A DNA stretch of 64,000 nt, from assembly GCA_038042445.1 (NCBI GenBank), contig JBBTED010000067.1, forward strand, positions 5,310 through 69,309, given 5' to 3'. Positions 7,451 through 28,284 of the stretch are shown piece by piece. The DNA comes from Candidatus Firestoneibacteriota bacterium. Lineage in GTDB: Bacteria > Oederibacteriota > D2-FULL-39-29 > JBBTED01. Under the pieces are notes generated by a model. The model searched no databases. It saw only the letters and a program-made list of their open reading frames with translations, and was not told the DNA's origin. Made by a program: the position numbers and the translations under genes. Numbering within the stretch: the stretch's first letter is position 1; each line of letters starts with the position of its first letter.

Positions 7451-8683
7451 TTATTTGTTTTTTGTGATTTTTTCTTTTTGTGCACTTTGTGGTTTTAATC
7501 TTTTTAAATCAATGTATTCGTTTATTTCGCCGATTATTGGCGCGGCATATTTAATAAATTCTTTTGTCACAAAATTTCCTTCTTTGTTTATATATTTGTC
7601 GTCCATAGGTTTTGCTTTCACAGCAACTTCTTTTAAAGGGACAGTTTCGTATTTAACCTTATAGGGGTTTGAGCTAACTCGTTTTATTGAAACCATTACT
7701 CCTGTTTTTCCCTGAATGGCTAATTCAACGGCTTTTACTCCGCATTCATAAGCTTCTTTTAAATCAACTTTCGATGCCCGATCTATTGCGCACATAGACA
7801 ATGATTCGGTTATCTGAAACTCTCCCCTAAATCCTGTGTCGCTTGAAATGATCTTGTGCAAATTTATGGCAGCTGAAGTGCCGCCCATTGCGCCGAATTC
7901 AATATTGGAAAATTTGTCCTTTGTTAATGAAGCTGAAACTGGTGTGCCGTCTTCAAGAAGAATGCCTTCTCCACAAACAATTGAAACCCATCCGTAATTT
8001 TTAATGCAGGTTTTTACATCAAAAAGAAATTTGTCTATATTTAATCTTCTTTCTGGTATGTAAATAAGATGCGGAGCATCCTGTTCTTCTTTTTTTGCCA
8101 AGGCTGATGCTGCAGGAAGCCAGCCGGATTCCCTGCCTATTGTTTGGAAGATTACGAATTTATCCACTCTTTGCATGTCGCGCGTAAGCCTGCCTGCCTG
8201 TTGTACTGACAATGCCACATACCTTGCAGCAGAAGGGTAACCCGGAGTATGGTCAGTTCCAAAAAGGTCATTATCAACGGTTTTAGGTAATCCTATGCCT
8301 ACAAATTCATAACCAGATTTTCTGCAATACTCTTCAACTCTGTGGATCGTATCCATAGTATCGTTTCCGCCTATAAGGAATAAATAACGGATATTATGTT
8401 TTTTGATCTGGCGGAATATCTTTGGAAAATCTTCGTCTTTGACTTTGTGCCTGCAGGAACCTAATGCGGACGATGGTGTTTTTCTTAAATCCTTAATAAT
8501 AGCAGGGCTTTCTTTCCCAAGGTCTATAATCTCATCATTCATAAAACCTTCTATGCCGTATTGCATTCCAAGGATTTTACCGAATTTATTGGATTTTAAC
8601 GTAGTCTGAATAACTCCGCATAAAGTGGAGTTTATTACCGAAGTTGGCCCTCCTGATTGTCCTATAATTATATTTGATTTCAT
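7451..8683 (-). CDS. pfk: 6-phosphofructokinase (PFK family, ATP- or PPi-dependent)
   Basis: IIGQSGGPTSVIN, LIGGNDT, GLPKTVDNDL and MGG motifs are present. Confidence 0.8.
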   Translation of the reverse strand: MKSNIIIGQSGGPTSVINSTLCGVIQTTLKSNKFGKILGMQYGIEGFMNDEIIDLGKESPAIIKDLRKTPSSALGSCRHKVKDEDFPKIFRQIKKHNIRYLFLIGGNDTMDTIHRVEEYCRKSGYEFVGIGLPKTVDNDLFGTDHTPGYPSAARYVALSVQQAGRLTRDMQRVDKFVIFQTIGRESGWLPAASALAKKEEQDAPHLIYIPERRLNIDKFLFDVKTCIKNYGWVSIVCGEGILLEDGTPVSASLTKDKFSNIEFGAMGGTSAAINLHKIISSDTGFRGEFQITESLSMCAIDRASKVDLKEAYECGVKAVELAIQGKTGVMVSIKRVSSNPYKVKYETVPLKEVAVKAKPMDDKYINKEGNFVTKEFIKYAAPIIGEINEYIDLKRLKPQSAQKEKITKNK

Positions 8684-8839
8684 ATGCCTCCCTGTTTGCT
8701 TTATCTGTATAAGCTCTCTTATTTATTCGTTCTAATAAATATTATATAATTTCTATCATATAGTATCAATTAAAATTTTTTCCAGTCTATAGTTTTATTC
8801 ATTTGACAAATATATTGTTGTTTTAGTATAGTAATTTTT

Positions 8840-9253
8840 GTGGGAGCCAGACGTAAAGCCAGAGAATTAGCATTGCAAATATTGTTTCAAATAGATGTAG
8901 GTGAATTGTCATTAGAAGAGGTATATTCAAATTTTATTGAAACCCAGAAATTGCAAAATGAAGTTAAAATATTTGCATTAGAGCTTGCAGAAGGGACACT
9001 TAAAGACATTAAAAATATTGATAGTGTTATTGAGAAAAGAATGGATAATTGGCAAGTTTCCAGATTAGCTGCTGTTGATAGAAGTATTTTGCGTTTAGCA
9101 ACTTATGAATTGCTTAATAGAAATGATATTCCAATAAGTGTTACAATAAATGAAGCTATAGAATTGGCAAAAGAATATTCTACGTCAGAATCAGGAAAAT
9201 TTGTAAATGGTATTTTGGATGGAATAAAAGAAGAGCACAAATTGTCTAAATGA
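8840..9253 (+). CDS. nusB: Transcription antitermination factor NusB
   Basis: GTG start, MGARRKARELALQILFQ, and the ArgRRAAR-like N-terminus. About 137 aa. Confidence 0.85.
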   Translation: MGARRKARELALQILFQIDVGELSLEEVYSNFIETQKLQNEVKIFALELAEGTLKDIKNIDSVIEKRMDNWQVSRLAAVDRSILRLATYELLNRNDIPISVTINEAIELAKEYSTSESGKFVNGILDGIKEEHKLSK

Positions 9254-9257
9254 GAAA

Positions 9258-10358
9258 GTGTATATGAAACTCAAGACTAAGGATTTAAGACTAAAGACTC
9301 AAAAAGTAAAAATAAAAGGTTCTGTAGTAAGAAAAAAAACTACAAAAAGAGCAAATATGCAGAAAATGAGTAGAGAGCAAAAAATTTTGGTTCCTATTAA
9401 AAAGAGAATTACTAATGTAAGAATTAAAAAAATAAAAATTAAAAAACCCAATAAATCTAAAAATGAAATTAAAAGTTCTATATTAAACAAAGATATAAAC
9501 GTAGAGAACAAAAATTTTTCTTCCTTACAAGGGGAAATTAATAATACTGTAGTTGTTCATCAGCATAAGCCATTAGAATTACCTAATGAATATAATGAGA
9601 CAAGAATAATGATAATACCAAGAGATCCATATTGTATATTTGCATATTGGGAAATACCACAATGGAAAACAGATGAAGCAAAAAGGCAATTAGGAGAAGA
9701 GAGATATCAAAATTCAAAATATATATTACGAACATATGATGTTACAGATATAAATTTTACTGGAAGCAATGCACATAGGGTTTTTGATATTGTCCTTACA
9801 GGTTTAATAAATAACTGGTATATAGATGTTGGTATTGCTGATAGAAATTATTGTGTGGATATAGGAATACTTACTAAAGACGGATATTTTTATTTGCTTG
9901 CACGTTCAAATGTAGTGCGTACACCAAGAGCAGGAATTTCAGATGTAGTTGATGAAGAATGGGCTCTATCTTTTGAAGAATTAGAAAAAATCAGTGAGTT
10001 AGGTGATGAATTTAAGTCGAGTATTGGTTCTGAAATGTTGCTGAGAAAACTTGGCAAACAATTACAATTTGATATTTCATCTGGAGGTGTAAGTTCTATA
10101 TATAGTTTTTCAGGTGTACAGGCTCAAAAACAAGATTTTTTTCTGGAAGTAAATACTGAGCTTATTTTATATGGTAAAACTATACCTGATGCTCAGGTTA
10201 CAATACAAAGTAAAAAAATAAAACTTAATCCTGATGGTACTTTTAGTATGAGATTTATACTTCCTGATGGAGAACAATTTATTCCTGTTAAGGCAATTTC
10301 ATTTGATAGAAAAGATGTCCGTGAAATTGTGCCAGTTGTAAAAAAGAAGACAAAATAA
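9258..10358 (+). CDS. DUF4912-domain protein with a highly Lys-rich N-terminal extension
   Basis: IMIIPRDPYCIFAYWEI is a DUF4912-type core. It lies immediately upstream of the GH57 gene. The first 100 aa are K/R-rich. Confidence 0.55.
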   Translation: MYMKLKTKDLRLKTQKVKIKGSVVRKKTTKRANMQKMSREQKILVPIKKRITNVRIKKIKIKKPNKSKNEIKSSILNKDINVENKNFSSLQGEINNTVVVHQHKPLELPNEYNETRIMIIPRDPYCIFAYWEIPQWKTDEAKRQLGEERYQNSKYILRTYDVTDINFTGSNAHRVFDIVLTGLINNWYIDVGIADRNYCVDIGILTKDGYFYLLARSNVVRTPRAGISDVVDEEWALSFEELEKISELGDEFKSSIGSEMLLRKLGKQLQFDISSGGVSSIYSFSGVQAQKQDFFLEVNTELILYGKTIPDAQVTIQSKKIKLNPDGTFSMRFILPDGEQFIPVKAISFDRKDVREIVPVVKKKTK

Positions 10359-16673: not shown

Positions 16674-16871
16674 ATGTCGTCAAGTACACTTTCATTATTA
16701 GATGTTGAACGAGCAATCAAAAAATTTGAACCGGAAAAGCAAAGAAAATTACTTGTAAAACTTCCTTCACTTTTAAAAATAAAAGTAGAAAATTTAGAGC
16801 TTTTAAAACTTGCAGAAGAATCTTTTGAATTTTGGAAAAATCCCGAAGATAAAATCTATGACACTCTTTAA
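16674..16871 (+). CDS. Putative antitoxin of a MazEF/PemIK-like type II toxin-antitoxin pair
   Basis: A small 65-aa ORF (MSSSTLSLLDVERAIKKF...) with an RBS. It overlaps the toxin start by 14 nt. Confidence 0.5.
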   Translation: MSSSTLSLLDVERAIKKFEPEKQRKLLVKLPSLLKIKVENLELLKLAEESFEFWKNPEDKIYDTL

Positions 16872-17205
16872 TAGCGGGGATGTTGTATTAATAGGTTTTC
16901 CATTTACTGATTTGTCAGGTTCAAAGCAAAGGCCTGGTGTAATAATTTCATCAAAATTATATAATGAAAAAGGAATAGATGTTATTATTGCTGCTATTAC
17001 TTCACAGATTCAGGACAAAATAGAAAATGATGAATATTGTCTTACAGAAAAAGAGCAAAAGATTGCAGGATTACCAAAAAAGTCTATTATAAAAGTTGGC
17101 AAGATAATAACTATTGATCAACGATTAATTAGAAAGAAGCTGGGATATTTAACATCAGAAACATTAGCAAATATTAGAAATATCCTACTAAAAATTCATA
17201 TATAA
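16858..17205 (+). CDS. MazF/PemK family endoribonuclease toxin
   Basis: GDVVLIGFPFTDLSGSKQRPGVIIS...VIIAAITSQ...KLGYL is a typical PemK fold signature. Confidence 0.7.
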   Translation: MTLFNSGDVVLIGFPFTDLSGSKQRPGVIISSKLYNEKGIDVIIAAITSQIQDKIENDEYCLTEKEQKIAGLPKKSIIKVGKIITIDQRLIRKKLGYLTSETLANIRNILLKIHI

Positions 17206-17245: not shown

Positions 17246-17596
17246 TCAATATTTGGATTTTTTCTTGAATACTTGTGAAAGAATATTAAAAGCCACTTTT
17301 TTATCTTCTACACTTTTTGCTCTGATGATATTGCTGATTTTATTTATATATGGGTCTACTTTGTAAATTACTACTGGCTTGTGAAATGCAAATAAATTAC
17401 TTAAAGAAATAGTCAGTGCTTCACAAATTCTTACCAGTGTTTCTATAGATGGAACATTTTTGCCTCTTTCAATCTGGGACAAATAACTCCAGTCTCTTTG
17501 TGTTTTCTCTGCAAGCTGTTCTAATGTCATACCCCTTTTATTTCTTTCGTTTCTGATGATTTTACCAATATATTTATAGATTTCAGTTGTTTCCAT
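17246..17596 (-). CDS. XRE-family HTH transcriptional regulator
   Basis: The HTH_3 core is GMTLEQLAEKTQRDWSYLSQIERGKNVPSIETLVRICEAL. Confidence 0.75.
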   Translation of the reverse strand: METTEIYKYIGKIIRNERNKRGMTLEQLAEKTQRDWSYLSQIERGKNVPSIETLVRICEALTISLSNLFAFHKPVVIYKVDPYINKISNIIRAKSVEDKKVAFNILSQVFKKKSKY

Positions 17597-17935: not shown

Positions 17936-18268
17936 TTATGTGAAAATTATTTTTGCAATTTTTATTAGTATGTCAATTTGTTTTGATGTTCTATTTTTGA
18001 TAACATTGAAAAGCTCTCTGTGTTTTCTATCTTTACTTTTCCATTTGCTTTCTTCAACGAACAAGTCAACAAGTGAAACATTTAAAGCATCTGCAATTTT
18101 CTGTAAAGTCTCCAAGGAGGGACCTTTTGCACCTCTTTCAATGAGGCCAATATAACTGTTATGCAAATTACTTTTTTCAGAAAGCTTTTCTTGTGTCAAA
18201 TTTTGTTCAGTTCTCAAGCATTTTATTCTATTCCCAAGCAATTTATAAAGCTCATTAAATTCGTTCAT
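17936..18268 (-). CDS. XRE-family HTH transcriptional regulator, paralogous to 17246-17596
   Basis: NLTQEKLSEKSNLHNSYIGLIERGAKGPSLETLQKIADAL. It is divergent from the + strand gene string starting at 18429. Confidence 0.75.
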   Translation of the reverse strand: MNEFNELYKLLGNRIKCLRTEQNLTQEKLSEKSNLHNSYIGLIERGAKGPSLETLQKIADALNVSLVDLFVEESKWKSKDRKHRELFNVIKNRTSKQIDILIKIAKIIFT

Positions 18269-18428: not shown

Positions 18429-18776
18429 ATGAACTTGAGGCAAGGTGAAATTAAACAAATTGAAAGTGATATTAATCTCCAAAAAAGTAACGGTTGGAGT
18501 TCATTAGCGAGTTTTATGTATGCAGCAAGTAAATATCTGAATCGTATTGGTATGCAGATTAATAAGGATAATTTATATGACTTAAATATTGCTTGCCATA
18601 GACAGTTAGGAATAACACAATATGCTAAAAATTCTATAATGCCATCAGATTATGCTTTTCCTAAATATGGTTTAGGAAAAGGTAAAACAGGCAAGAACAC
18701 AAAAAAATACCCAAAATTTTTGGAGAAAATTGATGGCAAAAAAGGTAAGAATTTTGAACTTGACTATTCCCTATAG
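18429..18776 (+). CDS. Hypothetical protein (115 aa)
   Basis: ORF only; no family recognised. Confidence 0.35.
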   Translation: MNLRQGEIKQIESDINLQKSNGWSSLASFMYAASKYLNRIGMQINKDNLYDLNIACHRQLGITQYAKNSIMPSDYAFPKYGLGKGKTGKNTKKYPKFLEKIDGKKGKNFELDYSL

Positions 18777-18800
18777 CTTGCTACAGGGTTACAATATTTT

Positions 18801-18893
18801 GTCATGCCCGAATGTAGTAATCGGGCATCCAGAGTCTTGTTTTATCAATGTTTTAAAGACACTGGATTCCCGATAGAAACATTCGGGAATGAC
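18801..18893. repeat. MITE-like element of about 93 bp with terminal inverted repeats GTCATGCCCGAATG...CATTCGGGAATGAC
   Basis: Two hairpin subunits sit in inverted orientation around an AT-rich core. A near-identical architecture is at 57331-57422. It is flanked by CCCYRTAGCTTGCTACRGGG hairpins at about 18766 and 18926. Confidence 0.7.
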
Positions 18894-19053
18894 GGTATTA
18901 CTTAAGTATTTTTTAGTTTTTGGATACCCCGTAGCTTGCTACGGGGAGGTTCATTTTATATGATAATAAAACAAAATGTTATTTTAAAATTCGGGGTAAG
19001 TTCAGTGTCCCACGAATTATAAATGTAAAGATGCAACATTTGAAGCAAGTGAT

Positions 19054-19692
19054 ATGGCAGAACAATTAAAAAGTGAAATAGGAAAAGGTTTTGAAGATGT
19101 ATTTATGAAAAAAAGTCTAAAAATTTTTGGGTTTATTCTTGGTGGCATTGTAGGTATTATATTTACCAAACTTTTTTTATTGAAGTCCTATGAAGATGAA
19201 AAAAAGAATGAGAAATTGACAGAGAAAGAAGAAGAAAAAAAGTTACATCAATTAGATGATTACTATGATGATTATATTCGAAGAAGAGATGAATTTAATA
19301 AAATTAGATCAGATACTATGGATTCGGTTGATAAAATAATATTGACTTTATCAACTGGTACATTAGTTCTATCAATTACATTTTTAGATAAAATTGGAAA
19401 ACCTATCAATTATTCTTTTATTTTAGTATGTTCATGGTGTTTTTTAATGGTTTCTCTCTTACTAAATATTCTTAGTTTTATATTTGCAAGAATAAATATA
19501 GAAAACAAAATTCAGGATTTGGATGATAAATACGAAGAACGTAAAGAAGATAAGAAATATTTTGTTGAAAAAAACTTTATTTGGGAAAAGTGGACTGATT
19601 TTTGTAATTATTTTGCTTTATTTTCATTTCTTATAGGTATTATTAGTTTTTTTATTTATGCATTAATAATTATATTTGATAATTGTAAATAG
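19054..19692 (+). CDS. Hypothetical membrane protein (212 aa)
   Basis: An N-terminal TM helix, a charged coiled region and about three C-terminal TM helices. Confidence 0.4.
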   Translation: MAEQLKSEIGKGFEDVFMKKSLKIFGFILGGIVGIIFTKLFLLKSYEDEKKNEKLTEKEEEKKLHQLDDYYDDYIRRRDEFNKIRSDTMDSVDKIILTLSTGTLVLSITFLDKIGKPINYSFILVCSWCFLMVSLLLNILSFIFARINIENKIQDLDDKYEERKEDKKYFVEKNFIWEKWTDFCNYFALFSFLIGIISFFIYALIIIFDNCK

Positions 19693-19706
19693 AATGGAGG
19701 TGCATT

Positions 19707-19763
19707 ATGGCCAGTAAAAAAACAGGTGGGAAAACACCATCTAAACCACCTAAAAAGAAATAA
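19707..19763 (+). CDS. Small 18-aa Lys-rich peptide MASKKTGGKTPSKPPKKK with a strong RBS
   Basis: GGAGGTG lies 5 nt upstream of the ATG. It sits immediately after the preceding stop. The ORF is below the 60-aa track cutoff. Confidence 0.3.
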   Translation: MASKKTGGKTPSKPPKKK

Positions 19764-19800
19764 AATTTTTATATGTTTATGAATTAGGAGATATAAAATT

Positions 19801-20037
19801 ATGGAAATAGAAATTAGTGATAATTTTGGAGTAAATGGTGGACTGCATTATGGAACACCTGTAAATGTTGTAAGAGAACTTAAAGCAATATGGAATATTA
19901 CAGCACGAGTATCTGAAGAGATAAGGAATAAAAGTGTTGATGATTGGGCAAAAGATATAAGGGAACATATGCCGTTTTTAAATTGTTGGTATGAAAAATT
20001 ATTAAAAGAGAAAAACATCCTTTTTCAAATGAATTAA
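19801..20037 (+). CDS. Hypothetical protein (78 aa)
   Basis: An RBS AGGAG precedes it. The stop overlaps the next start (TAATG). Confidence 0.4.
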   Translation: MEIEISDNFGVNGGLHYGTPVNVVRELKAIWNITARVSEEIRNKSVDDWAKDIREHMPFLNCWYEKLLKEKNILFQMN

Positions 20038-20198
20038 TGACTATTTTTGCACTTGCTTATGGCGAGCCAAACTATCAATGGGTAAGTATTCAGAATATTA
20101 TATGGGATGATGGTTCCACTACTACAAGGGATGATTTACTTAGAATGCAATTGGATGAAGAAAAATTCAATAATTTACAGAGATTAGGTTTAATATAG
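20037..20198 (+). CDS. Hypothetical small protein (53 aa, MTIFALAYGEPNYQWVS...). It is translationally coupled to the previous ORF.
   Basis: The TAATG overlap was found manually. It is not in the ORF track. Confidence 0.3.
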   Translation: MTIFALAYGEPNYQWVSIQNIIWDDGSTTTRDDLLRMQLDEEKFNNLQRLGLI

Positions 20199-20200
20199 TT

Positions 20201-20788
20201 TTGAAATTTAAAAAGAATAAAGAAATGGATAATTTAAAAGATATTTATATTAGTTATTTCAATCAGATGAGAGATGGTGAATCAAATATTTTCAAATTTC
20301 TCACTACACTTTTTACTGCTATTGGAGGATTTTATATTGTTGTTAAAAATAATGTTGTTGAAAATAATTTAGATTGGTTATTGTTTTCAGCAATTGGATC
20401 TACTATTGTACTTATATGGGGAATTCTTTATGTTTTATCAATAGGTTATACGCATAGATATTTGCAGGTAATAATGTGGTATTATGAAAATAAATTAAAA
20501 TTACCCAATTTCAAATCTTGGGATCCAAAAAAATTTAAAAAGTTGAAAGTATGCCAAAGCTTATTATTAGAACCTACTCCGGGAATTTATAAAATCCATC
20601 TTATAGGATTTATTATGGGAATTATGTTAGTTTGGTATTGGTACGGATTTTTAAAAAATAACAACCATATTGGTTGTGTGATTATACTATTTCTTATTGT
20701 GTGGTTGCTTACTGCTTGTTTAAATTATTACTATATGAACAAACTAAAAAAAATAATTGAAAAAGGAATTAATAATGATAAAACTTAA
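20201..20788 (+). CDS. Hypothetical membrane protein (about 4-5 TM helices). It is the first gene of the tight surface-protein operon.
   Basis: Hydrophobic helices throughout. It overlaps the next ORF. Confidence 0.4.
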   Translation: MKFKKNKEMDNLKDIYISYFNQMRDGESNIFKFLTTLFTAIGGFYIVVKNNVVENNLDWLLFSAIGSTIVLIWGILYVLSIGYTHRYLQVIMWYYENKLKLPNFKSWDPKKFKKLKVCQSLLLEPTPGIYKIHLIGFIMGIMLVWYWYGFLKNNNHIGCVIILFLIVWLLTACLNYYYMNKLKKIIEKGINNDKT

Positions 20789-23480
20789 TAAATTTTTTAA
20801 AATTATTTTTATAGTAATAGTTTATAGTATAATTAACGATTTTACATATACTTATGCTGTAACTTATACATTAGACAGCACAGGAAATGTTGGAGGGTAT
20901 AACTCTATAGCCATAGACAGTAATAACAAAGTTCATATTGGTTATTATGATGTTACAAATGGAGATTTAAAATACGCAACGAATATATCTGGTTCATGGG
21001 TAACATCTACTTTGGATAGTTCAGGAACTGTTGGATGGTGGAGCTCTATAGCCATAGACAGTAATAACAAAGTTCATATTGGTTATTATGATGCTACAAA
21101 TGGAGATTTAAAATACGCAACGAATATATCTGGTTCTTGGGTAACATCTACTTTGGATAGTTCAGGAACTGTTGGATGGTATAACTCTATAGCCATAGAC
21201 AGTAATAACAAAGTTCATATTAGTTATATGGATTATACAAATGCAGATTTAAAATACGCAACAAATACATCTGGTTCTTGGGTATATACAACATTAGATG
21301 ATATTGGAAGTAGTTTAGATGGTTCTCAAAACCGTACTTCAATCACAATAGATAGTAATAATAAAGTCCATATTAGTTATGCTATGGGTTTTGGTGGTAA
21401 TTTAAAATATGCAACAAATACATCAGGTAGTTGGGTGTGTATATCATTAGGTATAGGATTTACTTCTTCAATAGCCATAGACAATAATAATAAAGTTTAT
21501 ATAAGTTATAATGGGACAGATTTAAGATATGGTACAAACGCATCTGGTAGTTGGGTGACATCAACATTAGATAGTGCGTTCTCAAATTCTTTCATAGCGA
21601 TAGATAACAATAACAAGATTCATATAAGTTGTTTTGATAGTACAAATGCAGATTTAAAATATGTTACAAATGCTGGTAATACAGCACCAACATTATCATG
21701 GACAGGCGAGGCAAATTATACTTCAGATGGAATAAATCCAGAAATAGGAAACACAAGTTCAACATTTATATACAGGATTAAATATACCGATACTGATAAT
21801 GATGCACCGGCGAGTGGGTATCCAAAGGTGCATATTAAGAAAGCAGGAGTTGAAATAAGCGGTAGTCCATTTACAATGAGTTATGTAAGTGGAAGTTATA
21901 GCACAGGAGCAATTTATACATATTCTAAAACATTAAGTTCTTTGGGAACTGACTACACATATTATTTTGAAGCGCAGGATGTGTGGAATGAAGTAGCAAC
22001 AGGCACGCCAACAATCGCTGTTGATTCTCCTGATGTCAATAATGCTCCTGCATTATCTTGGACCGGTGAGACAAATTATGTATCTGACGGGTTAGATCCG
22101 CATACAGGAAATACAGCAATAACATTTACATACAGAGTGAAGTATACGGATGCTGATGCTTTAGCAAGTGGATATCCAAAAGTTCATATTAAAAAAGCAG
22201 GAAGTGAAATATCTGGTAGTCCATTCACAATGACTTATGTAAGTGGAACATATTCAGGCGGAGCGATTTACACTTATTCTAAAATACTTTCTACCGTTGG
22301 AATTGACTATACATATTATTTTGAGGCACAGGATGTATATAACGAAGTAGCAACTGGAATACCAACAACATCAGTAGATGCTCCTGATGTTTCTGCTATT
22401 CCTCTTATTTCTCCAAATACAGCACCCATTTTTTCCTGGACAGGTGAAACAAATTATACGGCTAATGGGATTTATCCTACTTTAGGAAATGCGAGTACTA
22501 CTTTTGTTTTTAGGGTGAAATATACGGATGCAGATAATGATGCTCCTGCATCAGGATATCCTAAATTGTATATTAAAAAAGGTGGTGTAGAAATTTCTGG
22601 TAGTCCGTTTGCTATGGTGACAGTAGATAGTAGTTTGTATTCAGCAGGTCCAATTTATACTTATTCTACGGTTTTAACTAAATCAGGTGCTGATTATACT
22701 TATTATTTTGAGGCGAAAGATGTATTAAATGGTCTTGCAACAGGAATACCTACAAATCCTTTTGATGCACCTGATGTTAATGTAATTCAGGCAAATCAAG
22801 ATACCAATATAGTAAGTGAAGACGGAACCAGTATTGATATTCCAAAGGATACACTAAATCCAGGAGTTGCAATTAACATCACTATTCCTTCTGTTATTCC
22901 TGAAGGAGAAGTCCAAAATGCAGGATATTCAGTTAAGCAGACAAATATAACAAGAGAAATAACTACATCAGATGGGAGTAAAAATTTTAATAAGGAAATA
23001 AAAATATCTATTCCATTTAAAGATTCTGATGTTGCTGGAATAAATAAACAAAACCTGAAATTATTCTATTATTCTGAAGAAAGGAAAATGTGGATTTTAA
23101 TTCCATCTGCTGTAGTTGATACTAATAAAAATACAATTTCTATATTAGTTACACATTTGACAATTTTTAGGATAATGGCACTTGAGCCAACATCAGCAGT
23201 ATTAGTTTTATATAACAATTTGTTTGACCCTGCAAATAATGAAAAATTATATGTTCGTTATGATATTGTGCAAGAAGTAGATGTTACAGTTACTGTGTAT
23301 AGCATCAAGGGGCAAAAGATAAAAGAATTATTTAATGGTAGAAAAACTGCTGGTAGTTACACTGATTTAACCTGGGATGGCAAGAATGAAGATGGAGAGG
23401 TTGTAGCAAGTGGTATTTATGTTGTGTATATTTCTGCAGGGGATTTTAGAGATAAGAAAAAAGTGGTGGTGGTGAAATGA
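20757..23480 (+). CDS. Large secreted repeat protein: signal peptide, 7 beta-propeller-like 45-aa repeats, 3 repeats of about 120 aa, and a C-terminal FlgD-Ig/T9SS-CTD-like domain
   Basis: The signal is IIFIVIVYSIINDFTYTYA. The propeller repeat is SIAIDSNNKVHIxYxDxTNxDLKYATNxSGSWV, present 7 times. The 120-aa repeat is SWTGExNY...YTDxDxDAPASGYPKVHIKKAG, present 3 times. The tail is VYSIKGQKIKELF...WDGKNEDGEVVASGIYVV...KKVVVVK. Confidence 0.7.
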   Translation: MKKELIMIKLNKFFKIIFIVIVYSIINDFTYTYAVTYTLDSTGNVGGYNSIAIDSNNKVHIGYYDVTNGDLKYATNISGSWVTSTLDSSGTVGWWSSIAIDSNNKVHIGYYDATNGDLKYATNISGSWVTSTLDSSGTVGWYNSIAIDSNNKVHISYMDYTNADLKYATNTSGSWVYTTLDDIGSSLDGSQNRTSITIDSNNKVHISYAMGFGGNLKYATNTSGSWVCISLGIGFTSSIAIDNNNKVYISYNGTDLRYGTNASGSWVTSTLDSAFSNSFIAIDNNNKIHISCFDSTNADLKYVTNAGNTAPTLSWTGEANYTSDGINPEIGNTSSTFIYRIKYTDTDNDAPASGYPKVHIKKAGVEISGSPFTMSYVSGSYSTGAIYTYSKTLSSLGTDYTYYFEAQDVWNEVATGTPTIAVDSPDVNNAPALSWTGETNYVSDGLDPHTGNTAITFTYRVKYTDADALASGYPKVHIKKAGSEISGSPFTMTYVSGTYSGGAIYTYSKILSTVGIDYTYYFEAQDVYNEVATGIPTTSVDAPDVSAIPLISPNTAPIFSWTGETNYTANGIYPTLGNASTTFVFRVKYTDADNDAPASGYPKLYIKKGGVEISGSPFAMVTVDSSLYSAGPIYTYSTVLTKSGADYTYYFEAKDVLNGLATGIPTNPFDAPDVNVIQANQDTNIVSEDGTSIDIPKDTLNPGVAINITIPSVIPEGEVQNAGYSVKQTNITREITTSDGSKNFNKEIKISIPFKDSDVAGINKQNLKLFYYSEERKMWILIPSAVVDTNKNTISILVTHLTIFRIMALEPTSAVLVLYNNLFDPANNEKLYVRYDIVQEVDVTVTVYSIKGQKIKELFNGRKTAGSYTDLTWDGKNEDGEVVASGIYVVYISAGDFRDKKKVVVVK

Positions 23481-23490
23481 GAGAAAAATG

Positions 23491-23551
23491 GATTCCCGCT
23501 TTCGCGGGAATGACAGAATGTAGTGGAAATTCTCGCAGGCTAAAGCCTGCG
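23491..23551. repeat. Two repeat units between the operon genes: GATTCCCGCTTTCGCGGGAATGAC and CGCAGGCTAAAGCCTGCG
   Basis: These are inverted-orientation copies of the families at 17830 and 18381. They create the artefactual N-terminus IPAFAGMT...RRLKPAA on the next ORF. Confidence 0.7.
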
Positions 23552-23572
23552 GCTACAACTACATTGTTTGTA

Positions 23573-26446
23573 ATGATGATTTTTATTTTGCCTGTTTTGT
23601 GTAATGCAGGGGTGGGAACAACTGGGGGTGTGTTTCTTGAGGATTCTGTAGGTGCAAGACCTTATGGTATGGGTTCTGCATTTTCTGCTATTGCTGATGA
23701 TGCAAATAGTATCTATTCAAATCCTGCTGGTTTTCATTATCTTGCCTATCCTGAAATAACAACAATGTATAATAAAGCATTGATGGATACTTCATTAAGT
23801 TATATTGGGTATATTCATCCTTATGAAAATATCGGAACTTTTTCCGGGTCATTTTTATTATTTGATGGTGGAGATATAGAGCTGAATTATTTAGATAGCA
23901 CAAGTGAAAAAGTGAAGGCAGGCCAGGATTGGGCCGTAACTTTAGGATATGGCAGATCTATAGGGAATTCAGAAATATTTTTTGGTGGGGCTAATATAAA
24001 ATTGGTACGTAGCACATTGGTAAATAAATATTCTGCAATAGCAATAGCGATGGATGCAGGATTGTTGTATCGCACAATTGATAATAAGCTTTCAATTAGT
24101 TTAGCATTTCAAAATTTAGGTACGAAGTTGAAATATAAAAATATAGGTGATTCTCTTCCTTTTACTTCTAAATTTGGAGTTGCCTATAGAATTTTAGAGC
24201 TTGAAGGACATTCAGTATTACTTGCAGGAGATTTTTCTCTTAATTTTGTAAAGAAAAATATTGGAGTTGAATATTGGGTAATGCAAATGTTCGCATTAAG
24301 ACTTGGTGCAAAATTGGGATATAATCCAAATAGCTATACTATGGGTTTCGGGATAAATGTTTTTTCTGATACAAAATTGGATTATGGATATTCTCCAATG
24401 ATAGATGAAACAACGCATAGGATTTCGTTATCATTTAAGTTTGGTTCACAGGATAAAATTACACTTGCTGATAAATACGAAGAAAAAGGAATGTATGCAC
24501 GTGCGCAATATATCCGCAATCCAGATGATTATATGTACGCAAAGGCAAATACAATAAAAGAAAAAGATGGATTTATACCTATTATAACATCAATAGAGCC
24601 AAAGAAAGCAGGTCCGGGAACGGAAATTAAAATATTCGGAGAAAAATTTGGGAAATATAGCAATGTAACAATAGGAGATGTTTTTGCAGAGGTTATAAAA
24701 TCAGAAGAAAAAAGAATAATAGCGAAAGTGCCGAATATAAAAGCTGGAGAATCAGAAGTAGTTGTGCAGACAGACAAAGGGGTTTCACTTTCAAAAACAT
24801 TATCAGTGATGCCATCAAAACCAGCAATGCTTGAAGTTTCAGAAATAACATTTAAAGATGAGAATCAAGATAATATTTTGGGAGCAGAGGAAACCGGAAA
24901 CATAATAATAACAGTTAAAAATCAGAAGGGTGCTGGAGAGTCGTTTGGAGTGAAGGTTAAACCAGTGTGTACTTCAGCAAAGAATGATCTGTTTTTTGAT
25001 AATGAAATAAATATAGGAAATATTGGTTCTGGAGAAGAGAGAAAAGTTGAAATTCCAGTTAAAGCTGGATTAGATTTAACAACAGGCAAAGCGAGTTTTA
25101 AATTGAGTTTTACTGAAGCGAATGAATATAATCCAGATCCAGTGAACATAACATTTGATACACATAAATTAGAGCCGCCTGATATAGAATTAGCGAAATT
25201 TGAGATAGACGATGGAATGTATCCATACAATCCGGAAAAATTAGCATCAGGAAATAACAATGGAATACTTGAACCCGGAGAACAAGTTGAAATAAACGCA
25301 GTTATTGTAAACAAGGGAACAGGTCCAACAAAGAATGGAGTTGTAAAAGTTATTTGTTCTGATCCTAAAATCAATATTTCAAGTTTAAGTCAGAGTTTAG
25401 AGTTTGATTTAGGTAGTATAGAGCCGGAAAAATGGAAAGAAATAAAGTTTGCGATAGAAGTTAAAAAACAATATAAGGGTGAACAGAATCTGCCTGTAAA
25501 ACTACAGTTCAGTGAAGCAAGAAAAATGTTTAACAAGGATTTGGCAATGAACATAGGATTAGGCAGGGTGTATGCAAAAACACAAGATGTTGTTATAAAA
25601 GGAAAATCGTTTGATATTGCTATTCCAACAATTACTTCTTTCGGAGATGATTTAATTAACATACCTGCTTATGCAACAACAGAAAAGAAGAATGCTTATG
25701 CAGTAGTGGTCGGAATAGAAAAATACAGGGATGTGGTGTCAGCGGAATATGCGGCAAAGGACGCACAGTCAATAAGAGATTATTTAATTAGCGCAATGAA
25801 ATTTAAAGAAGAGAATATTAGATTTGCTCTAAACGAAAGAGCAAGCAGGAATGATTTAATCAGATATTTCAATGTGGAGTTAAAGAACAATGTTGAAAAG
25901 GATTCTTTGGTGTTTGTATATTATTCCGGGCATGGTGCCCCGGATGCAACAACAGGCGATACATACATCGTTCCTTATGACGGAGACCCGAATACAATAA
26001 AAGACAGCGGGTATTCGTTAAAGCAGTTGTATGAGGTATTAAGCAAACTACCAACTAATAAAATATTGGTTGTGATAGACGCGTGTTTCAGCGGTGCAGG
26101 CGGAACAAGAACGCTTTTAGCAAAAGGAGCAAGACCATTAGTAGTGAGTAAGGATACAGATACCGGGAATGCGATAGCAATCACAGCAACAGGAGCAGGA
26201 CAAATAAGCGGGACTTATGACGAGAAACAACACGGGTTATTTACATATTATTTTTTGAAAGGTATTCAGGGTGAAGCGGATATAAACAAAGACAAGGAAA
26301 TAATGTTAAGCGAGTTGTATGGATATTTAAAGCCAGAGGTTATAAGGAAAGCAAGAAAAGACAACAGGGACCAGGAACCGCAGATATTGCCATCAGTTAA
26401 TCAGATAGGTGAGTTTGAAAAATTACCATTAGCAATATTAAAATGA
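23573..26446 (+). CDS. Multidomain surface protein: signal peptide, PorV/FadL-like beta-barrel-like domain, IPT/TIG, 2 CARDB-like Ig domains, and a C-terminal caspase-like Peptidase C14 domain
   Basis: The signal is MMIFILPVLCNA. The N-terminal domain has GARPYGMGSAFSAIADDANSIYSNPAG and ends ...SLSFKF. The IPT domain is IITSIEPKKAGPGTEIKIFGEKFG. The CARDB-like units are ILEPGEQVEINAVIVNKGTG. The caspase dyad is FVYYSGHG...VVIDACFSG. The ORF-track start at 23477 lies inside the repeat elements. Confidence 0.7.
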   Translation: MMIFILPVLCNAGVGTTGGVFLEDSVGARPYGMGSAFSAIADDANSIYSNPAGFHYLAYPEITTMYNKALMDTSLSYIGYIHPYENIGTFSGSFLLFDGGDIELNYLDSTSEKVKAGQDWAVTLGYGRSIGNSEIFFGGANIKLVRSTLVNKYSAIAIAMDAGLLYRTIDNKLSISLAFQNLGTKLKYKNIGDSLPFTSKFGVAYRILELEGHSVLLAGDFSLNFVKKNIGVEYWVMQMFALRLGAKLGYNPNSYTMGFGINVFSDTKLDYGYSPMIDETTHRISLSFKFGSQDKITLADKYEEKGMYARAQYIRNPDDYMYAKANTIKEKDGFIPIITSIEPKKAGPGTEIKIFGEKFGKYSNVTIGDVFAEVIKSEEKRIIAKVPNIKAGESEVVVQTDKGVSLSKTLSVMPSKPAMLEVSEITFKDENQDNILGAEETGNIIITVKNQKGAGESFGVKVKPVCTSAKNDLFFDNEINIGNIGSGEERKVEIPVKAGLDLTTGKASFKLSFTEANEYNPDPVNITFDTHKLEPPDIELAKFEIDDGMYPYNPEKLASGNNNGILEPGEQVEINAVIVNKGTGPTKNGVVKVICSDPKINISSLSQSLEFDLGSIEPEKWKEIKFAIEVKKQYKGEQNLPVKLQFSEARKMFNKDLAMNIGLGRVYAKTQDVVIKGKSFDIAIPTITSFGDDLINIPAYATTEKKNAYAVVVGIEKYRDVVSAEYAAKDAQSIRDYLISAMKFKEENIRFALNERASRNDLIRYFNVELKNNVEKDSLVFVYYSGHGAPDATTGDTYIVPYDGDPNTIKDSGYSLKQLYEVLSKLPTNKILVVIDACFSGAGGTRTLLAKGARPLVVSKDTDTGNAIAITATGAGQISGTYDEKQHGLFTYYFLKGIQGEADINKDKEIMLSELYGYLKPEVIRKARKDNRDQEPQILPSVNQIGEFEKLPLAILK

Positions 26447-27540
26447 GAAATAAAACGGTTTTGTCATTGCGAGTGAAACGAAGTAATCTTGGGATTTATC
26501 TAGTATTTTTTCTTGTTGTTGTTTTTTGTGGGTGTGCTACGACACCAAAGTCAAAACCGGATTTAAAAGATAAATCCGATAAACTTTTTCAGGAACTTGG
26601 AAAAGAAGAAACTCCGGATATTCAACAGAATAAAGAAATGAAACAGATGGAAAAGGAGTTGGATAAAACGCCCAATAAATCAGACCAAACAGTAGAACAA
26701 GCGTCTCGCTTGTCAGAACAACAGCCATCAATGGTAGGACAGCCGTCTCGGCTGTCAGAAGAAATTTCTTTTGAAGAAACAGGTGAAGGGTTCGCGTCAA
26801 AATACGAACGGAGAATAGAAGCAGAAAAACGTGCAGAGGAGAATGCTTTATCAAAAGCGCTAAAGAAAATAGGCACAGATGTTTTTGACAGTTTCAGCGA
26901 TGCAATGGCTCAATCCGGAAAAACACAGTATCAGTTCGTTGCGAAATGTCTTTATATCGGCACAAGCGGATTAGTGTCTTATGAAAGAACTGGAGAGCCG
27001 ATTTTTACAGAAGAGACAAATGGAACAAAGTGCGTTCTTAAAATAAAAGGCACGGTTTATTCAAAAGGTAAGCCAGACCCTTCTTATGGGGTTAAAATAG
27101 ATAAGAATTCCGGGATGGATAAACTGATTTATAATTCCGGGGATGAAGTCCAACTAAAATTTTCTGTTACAAAGGATTCACATATAACTATTTTAAATAT
27201 TGATGAGGAAAAGAACGTTTATCTGATTTATCCAAATAAGTTTGTTAAGGGAAATATACTGAAAGCAGGAGAAAGTTTTGAAATACCGGGTAACTTGGGA
27301 ATAAAAATGCAGGCAGTATTACAGGAAGGAAAGAGCGAAACAGTTGAATTACTATACATAATCGCAACAAAAACCAATTCGTTGTTTTTATCTGAGGATA
27401 GCAAAGAGATTCTTTTATCAACAGATTACACATTGTTTTCAATCGGAGAATTTAAAAGGGCTATGGAACGGATTGGAAAACTTAATCGTGATGAGTGGAC
27501 AATGATTGTTTTGCCATATACGATAGTAAAAGGTAAATAG
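26443..27540 (+). CDS. Lipoprotein with a C-terminal DUF4384-like domain (a domain family often found with caspase domains)
   Basis: The lipobox is VVVFCGC. The C-terminal YNSGDEVQLKFSVTKDSHITILNIDEEKNVYLIYPN...AGESFEIPG fits the DUF4384 pattern. The N-terminal n-region is partly encoded by a GTCATTGCGAG repeat. Confidence 0.55.
   Translation: MRNKTVLSLRVKRSNLGIYLVFFLVVVFCGCATTPKSKPDLKDKSDKLFQELGKEETPDIQQNKEMKQMEKELDKTPNKSDQTVEQASRLSEQQPSMVGQPSRLSEEISFEETGEGFASKYERRIEAEKRAEENALSKALKKIGTDVFDSFSDAMAQSGKTQYQFVAKCLYIGTSGLVSYERTGEPIFTEETNGTKCVLKIKGTVYSKGKPDPSYGVKIDKNSGMDKLIYNSGDEVQLKFSVTKDSHITILNIDEEKNVYLIYPNKFVKGNILKAGESFEIPGNLGIKMQAVLQEGKSETVELLYIIATKTNSLFLSEDSKEILLSTDYTLFSIGEFKRAMERIGKLNRDEWTMIVLPYTIVKGK
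26463..26488. repeat. GTCATTGCGAGTGAAACGAAGTAATC half-element inside the 5' coding end of the lipoprotein gene
   Basis: It matches the TIR of the 48795-48876 element. Confidence 0.6.
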
Positions 27541-27656
27541 TTTATAGAATATGTTATGCTGAATTCATTTCAGCATCTGTAGGGGTGGATTTATCCGACC
27601 AGATATTGTAGTTGTTTTGTAGTTGCCGACTTTGGTTGGCAAAGGAGGAAAAGAAA

Positions 27657-28214
27657 ATGGGAAAAGGTAATGTAGTCGCTCAATTTATTGAGCATAAGGT
27701 AGTTGCAAAGATTGGTTTGCTGATTGTTTTAGCAGTATTTGTTATAGTTGGTTGTGCATCAATGAAACCAATGTGGGTGGATAAAGGAAGTGCTGCGTTT
27801 GAGAAAGGCAAAGAAAAGGTGTTTTATGGTGTTGGCACAGCGAGTGCTGAAATTAAAGACAAAGCATTAAGAATAGAAACAGCGGATAACAGAGCAAGAG
27901 CGAGTTTACAGAAGATATTTGACACATATACAGCGTATTTAATGAAGGATTATCAGGGACAGGACGGAGTAGTTGTTGAAAGGGCTGTAAAAACATTTGC
28001 TGCTGGGAATTTATCTGGAGTTGAAATAACAGACCATTTTACTGAAAGCGATGGCACAATATATTCTTTAGCGAAACTTGATTTAGAGACATTCAAGCAG
28101 GCAATGGAAATGGCAAAGGAAGTTAGTACTATAGCAAAGGAACATTTGCAAAAGAAAGCAGATGTTATGTTCTCTGAATTAGAAAAAGAAGAAGAAAAAA
28201 GAGGAGCAAAGTAA
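27657..28214 (+). CDS. LPP20-like lipoprotein
   Basis: RBS AGGAGG, lipobox FVIVGCAS, and KVFYGVGTASAEIKDKALRIETADNRARASL, which is typical of the LPP20 family. Confidence 0.55.
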   Translation: MGKGNVVAQFIEHKVVAKIGLLIVLAVFVIVGCASMKPMWVDKGSAAFEKGKEKVFYGVGTASAEIKDKALRIETADNRARASLQKIFDTYTAYLMKDYQGQDGVVVERAVKTFAAGNLSGVEITDHFTESDGTIYSLAKLDLETFKQAMEMAKEVSTIAKEHLQKKADVMFSELEKEEEKRGAK

Positions 28215-28256: not shown

Positions 28257-28284
28257 GTAGGGAACAGGATTATCTGTTCCCTAC
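28257..28284. terminator. Strong 11-bp hairpin GTAGGGAACAG-gattat-CTGTTCCCTAC at the operon end. It may act as a bidirectional terminator.
   Basis: A perfect inverted repeat with A/T-rich flanks. Confidence 0.5.

Follow-up and report, generated by a model that had tools for sequence, protein, structure and literature searches.

The DNA analyzed here, a 64-kb stretch of contig JBBTED010000067.1 (hereafter the window), is chromosomal DNA with a GC content of about 32% from a metagenome-assembled genome (MAG) of Candidatus Firestonebacteria, i.e., not from Bacteroidota. Its plus strand carries a gene cluster in which an exported repeat protein with a C-terminal sorting domain (CTD) resembling type IX secretion system (T9SS) sorting domains is followed by a fusion of a PorV-like outer-membrane beta-barrel to a caspase-like protease and by two lipoproteins. 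A preliminary description of this DNA counted six tightly packed genes here and proposed a compact module for CTD processing and anchoring outside Bacteroidota. Five open reading frames (ORFs) were verified at their coordinates (20201–20788, 20757–23480, 23477–26446, 26443–27540, and 27612–28214), with 4-bp overlaps at the cargo/fusion and fusion/DUF4384 junctions. The conserved unit, however, includes only four of the genes. The 195-aa ORF at 20201–20788 (plus strand) is not conserved, and neither this ORF nor the 212-aa and 115-aa ORFs upstream have a counterpart in any related locus compared; all three were therefore rejected as members of the operon. By exact-sequence look-up, the 989-aa fusion corresponds to MEK6646312.1 (“PorV/PorQ family protein”) and the 365-aa protein to MEK6646313.1 (“DUF4384 domain-containing protein”), and MurA is encoded just downstream.

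The cargo gene (20757–23480, plus strand) encodes a Sec-exported repeat protein of 907 aa that ends in a stalk and a CTD. Six clear blade-like repeats of 41–51 aa (anchors at aa 51, 98, 145, 196, 239, and 280) were found rather than the seven originally counted, and the three longer repeats of about 120 aa were recovered at 120–126 aa (anchors at aa 310, 430, and 556). The CTD (aa 813–907; 23193–23477, plus strand) is of the FlgD_ig type and resembles T9SS type A domains. Its assignment to the FlgD_ig/T9SS tail pattern stands for two models, namely FlgD_ig (PF13860; 35.2 bits against a gathering cutoff of 27) and TIGR04183 (24.2 bits for the full protein and 27.2 bits for the tail alone against a cutoff of 23, with the match running to the last residues), but not for the Pfam model Por_Secre_tail (PF18962; 15.1 bits, below 27). 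Among ten related cargo tails, seven pass TIGR04183. In addition, the cargo tails align specifically to the last 90 or so positions of the PorU and PorZ models, with the tail from the Elusimicrobiota contig L011 reaching 65 bits on PorZ.

PorU and PorZ are T9SS proteins whose CTDs are not removed but bind PorV and PorQ (PMC11285876), and PorV binds the CTDs of substrates through its extracellular loops (PMC10994853). In the family described here, the CTD is conserved at 37–53% identity across cargos with differing passengers. The passenger of the window cargo has 51% identity to the cargo that accompanies a barrel-LpoB fusion (L065), and the other caspase-fusion loci carry fn3 cargos. A constant CTD with exchanged passengers fits a permanent handle for a cognate barrel better than a cleavable signal. 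The passenger-CTD junctions of the cargos compared share no conserved Arg or Lys, and the window cargo has neither residue there; a caspase site at this junction was dropped from consideration for lack of such a conserved basic residue. Judging from these sequence patterns, the cargo most likely keeps its CTD instead of losing it by cleavage.

The fusion gene (23477–26446, plus strand) encodes, in order, a barrel, a helical tail, a TIG domain, two Ig domains, and a C14 caspase. The barrel (aa 44–324; 23606–24448, plus strand) matches the PorV family model NF033709 over its full length (model positions 1–326 of 326 at aa 48–322) at 154.4 bits against a cutoff of 90. The equivalog cutoffs for individual members (NF033710 and NF033711 for PorV and PorQ proper) were missed for PorV (52.5 against 250), PorQ (85.6 against 220), and PorV2 (31.6 against 325). 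A profile search of the PDB matched the barrel to PorV (6h3i_F, E-value 1e-7) with shared motifs that include the terminal strand. An AlphaFold2 (AF2) model of the fusion, based on an alignment of 19 sequences, has a mean predicted local distance difference test (pLDDT) score of 76; in it, the barrel leads into three helices and a series of three beta-sandwich domains, and the protease domain, of alpha/beta type, comes last. DSSP assigned 14 long and two short strands to the barrel, and solved PorV structures (8gl6_F and 6h3i_F) were the top Foldseek matches of the model (E-value 5e-13; template modeling (TM) scores of 0.64–0.67), with FadL at 0.53. The PorV/FadL-like barrel suspected in the preliminary description is thus confirmed by the family model, the strand count, and the fold comparison.

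The helical tail that follows the barrel (aa 327–363; 24455–24565, plus strand; motif KYEEKGMY..AQY), recognized from its conservation and the helices of the AF2 model, is the most conserved segment of the fusion, with 43% invariant columns and a mean identity of 67%. Because this tail is retained in the barrel-only relatives at loci L008 and L009, a docking function is suggested. The next segment (24578–25546, plus strand) contains the TIG domain (aa 368–439; 37.3 bits) and two CARDB-like Ig beta-sandwiches (aa 452–563 and 570–690); TIGR03900 also matches over aa 452–680. The TIG assignment is upheld. For the two CARDB-like domains, the match is not significant in the 989-aa protein itself but is significant in the same region of 45 of 59 sampled relatives, a Pfam survey otherwise dominated by WD40 models, and both domains appear as modeled beta-sandwiches. 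The two halves of the fusion do not always group together: in the barrel half, homolog P0005 falls into a group with the window protein, but in the caspase half (alignment columns 780–1029, approximately) it groups with P0006 and L007, with which it shares insertions and the C-terminal end. This pattern in the alignment suggests domain-level recombination within the fusion family.

The protease domain (aa 741–970; 25697–26386, plus strand) matches Peptidase_C14 (PF00656) at 55.4 bits against a gathering cutoff of 21.4. The dyad residues His819 (codon at 25931–25933) and Cys870 (codon at 26084–26086), both checked at the codon level on the plus strand, are invariant in the six-member full-length family and in 127 wider relatives, so that the C14 domain with its YSGHG…DACFSG dyad is confirmed as originally described. 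The YYSGHG and DACFSG motifs align with HYSGHG and DSCHSG of Arabidopsis metacaspase-4. Foldseek matched the domain to MALT1 (TM-score 0.70) and metacaspases. For this domain, a profile search of the PDB returned only metacaspases 4, 1, and 9 and MALT1, and the domain as a single sequence had no match in the PDB. The PorU model NF033707 did not match the fusion, which also lacks a signal for the C25 family. In metacaspases and MALT1, the acidic S1 residue is located two residues before the catalytic Cys. The corresponding Asp868 (codon at 26078–26080) of the D-x-C motif (D868-A-C870) is conserved in at least 90% of the 127 relatives, and based on its position, the fusion caspase is predicted to cut after Arg or Lys. 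When the cluster was scanned with PADLOC, only a generic “caspase” model matched, and the NCBIfam model for EACC1-type caspases scored 75, below its cutoff of 140.

The third conserved gene (26443–27540, plus strand) encodes a lipoprotein of 365 aa (lipobox FCGC). As had been proposed, it carries a DUF4384 domain (27130–27375; aa 230–311), which matches PF14326 at 54.8 bits against a gathering cutoff of 27. An LPP20-like N-terminal domain was also considered for this protein and dropped because a profile-profile comparison matched signal peptides only. The fourth gene (27612–28214, plus strand; likely start at 27657) encodes a lipoprotein of 200 aa (lipobox IVGC). It was first named LPP20-like. 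The window protein itself falls below the Pfam cutoff for this family (PF02169; 16.3 bits against 25.9), but the name holds for its relatives and its fold. Among its 1866 homologs, many match PF02169, and those at 43–50% identity are named LPP20 family lipoprotein. Its AF2 model (pLDDT 84.5) is most similar to Helicobacter pylori Lpp20 (5ok8; TM-score 0.65, probability 1.0) and then to HP1454. With a mean column identity of 76% among orthologs, this is the most conserved protein of the cluster. Profile searches of the PDB with the two lipoproteins returned no match.

Distant orthologs of the LPP20-fold protein (43–50% identity) occur in Deltaproteobacteria, Nitrospirota, and another lineage (L066 483–4439, L067 7652–10231, and L068 8001–11619), where a conserved operon joins LPP20 to an LpoB-like protein and an uncharacterized protein of about 450 aa, with a trypsin-like serine protease as an optional member after LPP20. 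The trypsin-like enzyme in these operons indicates that the LPP20 family recurs beside secreted proteases. Furthermore, pairs of small genes separate the DUF4384 gene from those for the caspase or cargo at two otherwise dissimilar loci (72 and 87 aa at L001 7471–7977; 87 and 95 aa at L069 1130–1700).

A word-indexed homolog search found six full-length homologs of the fusion at 45–100% identity, and a profile search of the same data with the alignment of the fusion proteins contributed few more. Its recurrence in independent assemblies from NCBI, JGI, ENA, and Logan shows that the fusion is not an assembly artefact. Gene adjacency is conserved in related loci as the preliminary description had anticipated, but gene order is shuffled. 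The order is DUF4384, small lipoprotein, two small genes, FlgD_ig protein, and fusion in L001, and cargo, fusion, small lipoprotein, and DUF4384 in L006. In L004, an HEPN/NT pair is inserted between the FlgD_ig protein and the fusion, after which come a second C14 protein, DUF4384, and the small lipoprotein. In an Elusimicrobiota MAG (L007; 37% identity), the gene order is identical to that of the window. Even around a more divergent protein with a barrel-TPR-TIG-Ig-caspase layout (P0150, at L071), a CTD protein lies upstream and LPP20-like and DUF4384 genes lie downstream. Linkage that survives such rearrangement is good evidence for a functional unit.

The two ends of this unit also occur apart. 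When a hidden Markov model (HMM) built from the cargo tails was searched against 8885 ORFs of the window and the fetched loci, 39 ORFs were found to end in this CTD, and 33 of them immediately precede a PorV-like barrel gene on the same strand. Conversely, a CTD cargo precedes 33 of the 76 PorV-like barrel genes. These cargo-barrel pairs are found in MAGs labeled Elusimicrobiota, Poribacteria, KSB1, Zixibacteria, Ignavibacteria, Eisenbacteria, “Clostridia”, and others, and most of the paired barrels have no protease. In the Elusimicrobiota loci L008 and L009, for example, the barrels are 46–47% identical to that of the window, end just past the helical tail, and accompany the same CTD subtype. 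Such protease-free loci indicate that a CTD cargo followed by its cognate PorV-like barrel is a widespread pair on its own. The pair may also multiply, as the Elusimicrobiota contig L011 (383–10933) carries three CTD proteins and two PorV-like barrels in the order cargo-barrel, cargo, cargo-barrel, a tandem that, on its sequence, shows paralogous expansion of the pair. In six other loci from Latescibacterota and Gemmatimonadota (L024, L028, L029, L030, L039, and L052; around 8600–9900), the barrel is preceded not by a CTD cargo but by a gene whose product carries HGCIRLND, the L,D-transpeptidase (YkuD) motif, which hints at a link of these barrels to peptidoglycan attachment.

The caspase end was followed by an exhaustive profile search of 1.84 billion representative proteins, which gave 7,567 matches at an E-value of 1e-30 or lower. 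Among the best 150 of these matches, 143 contain the caspase; only 12 clusters at 50% identity also have the PorV-like barrel, so that barrel-caspase fusions are rare, and about 131 clusters share the same two-Ig-plus-caspase region (profile positions 450–979, approximately; 375–740 bits). The N-termini ahead of this region include lipoboxes, plain signal peptides, WD40 propellers, and unrecognized sequence, and the barrel-looking N-termini among other members of the caspase family, candidates for further barrel anchors, were not recognized by Pfam. For instance, L069 and L070 encode a lipoprotein-anchored caspase with neither a barrel nor a CTD cargo, and the caspase of L072 has a signal peptide only. 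The lipoprotein partners remain with the protease. DUF4384 adjoins the caspase in L004, L069, L071, L072, and L073, and LPP20 does so in L004, L069, L071, and L073; every further caspase locus opened has an adjacent DUF4384 gene and usually an LPP20-like gene as well. The second C14 gene of L004 likewise adjoins DUF4384. HMMs built from the window lipoproteins match caspase-containing loci only and have no match in the roughly 55 other PorV-like loci. Given this separate occurrence of the pair and the trio, the window locus is best described as a cargo/carrier pair that has merged with a caspase/DUF4384/LPP20 trio.

The side of the outer membrane on which the caspase resides may be read from the end of the barrel. 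The last strand (THRISLSFKF) has its counterpart at the C-terminus of solved PorV, and together with an even strand count, this implies that the extension should start in the periplasm. The domains found in this position on homologous barrels of other phyla are CARDB with OmpA (L014 and L017), CARDB (L012), TPR (L026, L051, and P0010–P0019), SLH (L045, L057, and L062), and an LpoB/CsgG-like domain (P0008). Because OmpA_C and SLH bind peptidoglycan, arms of this kind are periplasmic. Similarly, in Bacteroidota the C-terminal tail of SprF is periplasmic (PMC12635249), and PorE, the periplasmic partner of PorP, is an outer-membrane-tethered protein with TPR, propeller, Ig-like, and OmpA_C domains (PMC5053529; PMC9143113). 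By this comparison with homologous barrels, the TIG-Ig-Ig-caspase arm is probably periplasmic.

Two of these barrel types merit description in their own right. The PorV-like barrels with a C-terminal SLH domain from Saganbacteria and an unclassified MAG (L045 2017–3729, L062 6385–8034, and L057 3205–4986) would be outer-membrane-to-cell-wall tethers built on a T9SS-type barrel. The barrels with CARDB and OmpA at L014 9926–14041, which also has Reg_prop propeller repeats, and at L017 3445–6342, which scores on PorP_SprF rather than PorV, look like a single-chain equivalent of PorP/PorV-PorE, as they combine the domain kinds that Porphyromonas gingivalis has in separate PorP and PorE proteins.

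Taken together, these patterns point to a four-gene cell-envelope module formed by the merger of two units. The first would comprise a Sec-exported surface protein with a type A-like CTD and its own PorV/PorQ-family barrel. The extracellular loops of this barrel may bind the cargo CTD and thereby keep the cargo on the cell, by homology to PorV-PorU, PorQ-PorZ, and PorP/SprF with type B cargo, the last of which is held by PorP and SprF (PMC9143113). We infer binding between CTD and barrel from the position of 33 of the 39 CTD ORFs directly upstream of a barrel. The second unit would be a secreted Ig-Ig-caspase that is always accompanied by the DUF4384 lipoprotein and usually by the LPP20 lipoprotein. 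In this lineage, the carrier barrel appears to have gained the caspase arm at its periplasmic C-terminus, and the barrel would substitute for the lipid anchor or the other N-terminal anchors found in relatives of the caspase. The metacaspase-like protease would then hang about three Ig domains below the outer membrane, beside its two lipoprotein partners. As a working guess, it may carry out regulated cleavage of periplasmic or outer-membrane-associated proteins, possibly including the cargo in transit. On balance, we lean toward the reading that the barrel holds the CTD of its neighbor, so displaying a variable repeat protein, and at the same time anchors an active periplasmic caspase that works with the two lipoproteins.

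Several points weigh against this reading. Lipoproteins and Ig arms can be surface-exposed in some phyla, and the inter-domain arrangement of the AF2 model is uncertain (predicted TM-score 0.43). The TIGR04183 score of the cargo is barely above its cutoff, and Por_Secre_tail fails. The reading also leaves the passage of the cargo across the outer membrane unexplained; no T9SS core gene was found among the ten largest other ORFs scanned in the window. Moreover, the fusion is kept in 12 independent 50%-identity clusters, and the CTD cargo is kept at every locus inspectable on both sides. Such a recurrent fusion with a retained cargo suggests a real coupling of the caspase to the cargo or the barrel that goes beyond mere anchoring, and some coupling of this kind is likely.

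Alternatively, the caspase could be a C-terminal signal peptidase or sortase similar to PorU that, fused to its PorV partner, removes the cargo CTD and perhaps links the cargo to an anchor on the surface. PorU and caspases both belong to clan CD, other clan CD enzymes act as transpeptidases, and porU adjoins porV in Bacteroidota. The barrel is a true relative of PorV, the cargo CTD is type A-like, and the adjacency of fusion and cargo is conserved in divergent members. However, most cargo-barrel pairs (including L008 and L009) lack a protease, the caspase trio is also found where both barrel and CTD cargo are missing, and the arm is probably periplasmic, whereas PorU is located on the cell surface. 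Furthermore, the protease is a C14 enzyme whose D-x-C motif is of the metacaspase type and which gives neither a PorU nor a C25 signal. The passenger-CTD junction has no basic residue that is conserved, and the tails of the cargos look like the CTDs that PorU and PorZ retain. Against cargo processing as such these points are not decisive, but we consider a PorU-like role unlikely. The same observations divide the module originally proposed: a PorV-related barrel that acts as a carrier or anchor beside a CTD cargo, in a Firestonebacteria host with relatives in Elusimicrobiota, is in line with that proposal, but PorU-like CTD processing is disfavored and was its weakest part. Slightly less probable still is that a tethered caspase matures the cargo docked under the barrel in the periplasm or destroys copies that are not exported. 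The fusion and the kept cargo adjacency imply coupling, the arm is predicted to lie on the periplasmic side, and the cargo, fusion, and DUF4384 genes are translationally coupled; against this, trios without a nearby CTD cargo (L069, L072, and L073) indicate that the cargo is not a general substrate, and no conserved basic cleavage site is found in the cargos.

Envelope defence or suicide offers another explanation, in which the caspase, DUF4384, and LPP20 proteins would form a conflict effector triggered by envelope damage or phage, with the barrel and cargo as anchor or bait. Genes of conflict systems do occur nearby: type I restriction-modification, Abi_2, and TIR_2 genes in L069, the HEPN/NT pair inside L004, HsdR and an integrase in L001, and a MazF toxin with XRE regulators beside the module in the window, within a variable islet between prmC and murA. 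The variable cargo passengers and the generic PADLOC match are also compatible with this explanation. It is nevertheless doubtful, as PADLOC matched nothing else in the cluster, the EACC1-type caspase model stayed under its cutoff, no sensor or NTPase component is present, and the context is inconsistent, with L068 and L073 having housekeeping or other neighbors. Finally, the arm could be displayed in the manner of an inverse autotransporter, with the segment after the barrel passing back out through the pore and bringing the Ig arm and caspase to the surface. As in intimins and invasins, an N-terminal barrel is followed by a chain of Ig-like domains, and a surface location would fit a PorU-like role. 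This topology is very improbable, given that the barrel is of the PorV/FadL type rather than the 12-strand intimin type with no match to the intimin family, that homologous barrels end similar arms with peptidoglycan-binding OmpA or SLH domains, and that the helical tail is also present on barrel-only relatives.

A more far-reaching reading would have the fusion span the outer membrane and couple a surface protein to a periplasmic executioner. In such a device, the variable CTD cargo on the outer loops of the barrel would serve as a receptor or bait, and its occupancy or disturbance would be relayed through the barrel and the highly conserved helical tail to the caspase, which, with the DUF4384 and LPP20 proteins, would cleave envelope targets (e.g., in abortive infection or regulated shedding). 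In a related version, the module would provide self-contained CTD sorting without a T9SS in phyla thought to lack one. We regard these ideas as a long shot.

The DNA around the conserved genes has several further features. Two perfect GC-rich palindromes (23492–23511 and 23535–23552, plus strand) lie directly past the cargo stop codon, in frame within the signal-peptide region of the fusion ORF. Their sequences are ATTCCCGC-TTTC-GCGGGAAT and CGCAGGC-TAAA-GCCTGCG. The stretch translates as …IPAFAGMT…RRLKPAA…, and the corresponding 23 or so codons are missing from homolog P0005. The first palindrome has no second copy within the window. These palindromes may be a small inserted repeat or, alternatively, an inter-cistronic stem-loop that sets the expression ratio of cargo to barrel. 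Downstream, a GC-rich hairpin with an 11-bp stem, recognized by pattern matching only and not assigned to a strand, is located at 28257–28284, 43 bp past the LPP20 gene. It scores as a minus-strand terminator, but its symmetric stem could also end a plus-strand operon, and it may mark the operon end. An Rfam scan of the window found no RNA family. Upstream, a low-GC islet (about 0.29) separates prfA-prmC from the module, which is in turn followed by murA. The islet contains a MazF/PemK-like toxin gene (16810–17205; 63.7 bits) for which no obvious antitoxin ORF was called, two XRE-family helix-turn-helix genes on the minus strand (17246–17596 and 17936–18268), and orphan membrane-protein ORFs (18429–20788).

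Literature searches found no description of a PorV-caspase fusion, of a cargo/PorV-like pair outside the phyla of the Fibrobacterota-Chlorobiota-Bacteroidota (FCB) group, or of a secreted Ig-Ig-caspase/DUF4384/LPP20 trio, in agreement with the earlier impression that this domain combination is undescribed. The parts already known are the PorV/PorQ family name assigned by NCBI and the associations of DUF4384 with caspases from surveys. The interest of the locus lies in T9SS evolution and in the biology of extracytoplasmic bacterial caspases. Dedicated pairs of PorV-type carrier barrels and type A-like CTD cargos occur in Firestonebacteria, Elusimicrobiota, Poribacteria, and other phyla. Either T9SS-like sorting extends further than has been assumed, or the pair is older than the complete machine or can function in its absence. 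The secreted Ig-Ig-caspases, a large uncharacterized family whose DUF4384 and LPP20 partners are fixed, provide a genomic context for DUF4384 and for this LPP20 subfamily. The barrel-caspase fusion links both systems physically and provides an experimental handle on extracytoplasmic bacterial caspases.

Among known systems, the PorV-PorU and PorQ-PorZ complexes of the T9SS are similar in that the barrel belongs to the PorV/PorQ family, as judged from the family HMM and the best fold match, and has an upstream partner whose type A-like CTD resembles the retained CTDs of PorU and PorZ. As in PorV-PorU, the barrel is in physical association with a cysteine protease of clan CD. However, the protease here is a metacaspase-like C14 enzyme, covalently fused to the C-terminus of the barrel and probably periplasmic, whereas PorU is found on the surface, where the CTD that it retains holds it on PorV (PMC11285876), and the fusion has no CTD. 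In addition, the barrel does not reach the PorV and PorQ equivalog cutoffs. The host also differs, as Firestonebacteria do not belong to the FCB group, and according to reviews, neither T9SS genes nor CTD proteins occur beyond that group (PMC11285876). The PorP/SprF systems with PorE share a dedicated barrel that is encoded beside its own CTD cargo, which is held on the surface (PMC9143113), and SprF has a functional periplasmic C-terminal tail (PMC12635249). The TPR, propeller, Ig-like, and OmpA_C domain kinds of PorE (PMC5053529) are fused to PorV-like barrels in L012, L014, L017, L026, and L051. Unlike these systems, the present module has a PorV/PorQ-type barrel, a type A-like CTD, and a protease with two lipoproteins in place of a peptidoglycan-binding scaffold.

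For the protease, orthocaspases and metacaspases share the C14 family, the His/Cys dyad, the D-x-C motif, and the MALT1/metacaspase fold. Their association with DUF4384 is also shared, already in the form of fusions such as P0018, and DUF4384 is mentioned in surveys of these enzymes (PMC7475262; PMC8283722). In contrast, the family described here is secreted, and two CARDB-like Ig domains precede its protease. Its DUF4384 domain resides on a lipoprotein of its own, LPP20 is a further partner, and 12 of its clusters are anchored by a PorV-like barrel. Finally, H. pylori Lpp20 (HP1456) is the best fold match of the 200-aa lipoprotein, followed by its operon partner HP1454; the window protein has a lipobox, and its homologs carry PF02169. 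It differs in falling below the Pfam cutoff, and its orthologs in other phyla belong to operons of LPP20, in some cases a trypsin-like protease, an LpoB-like protein, and the protein of about 450 aa.

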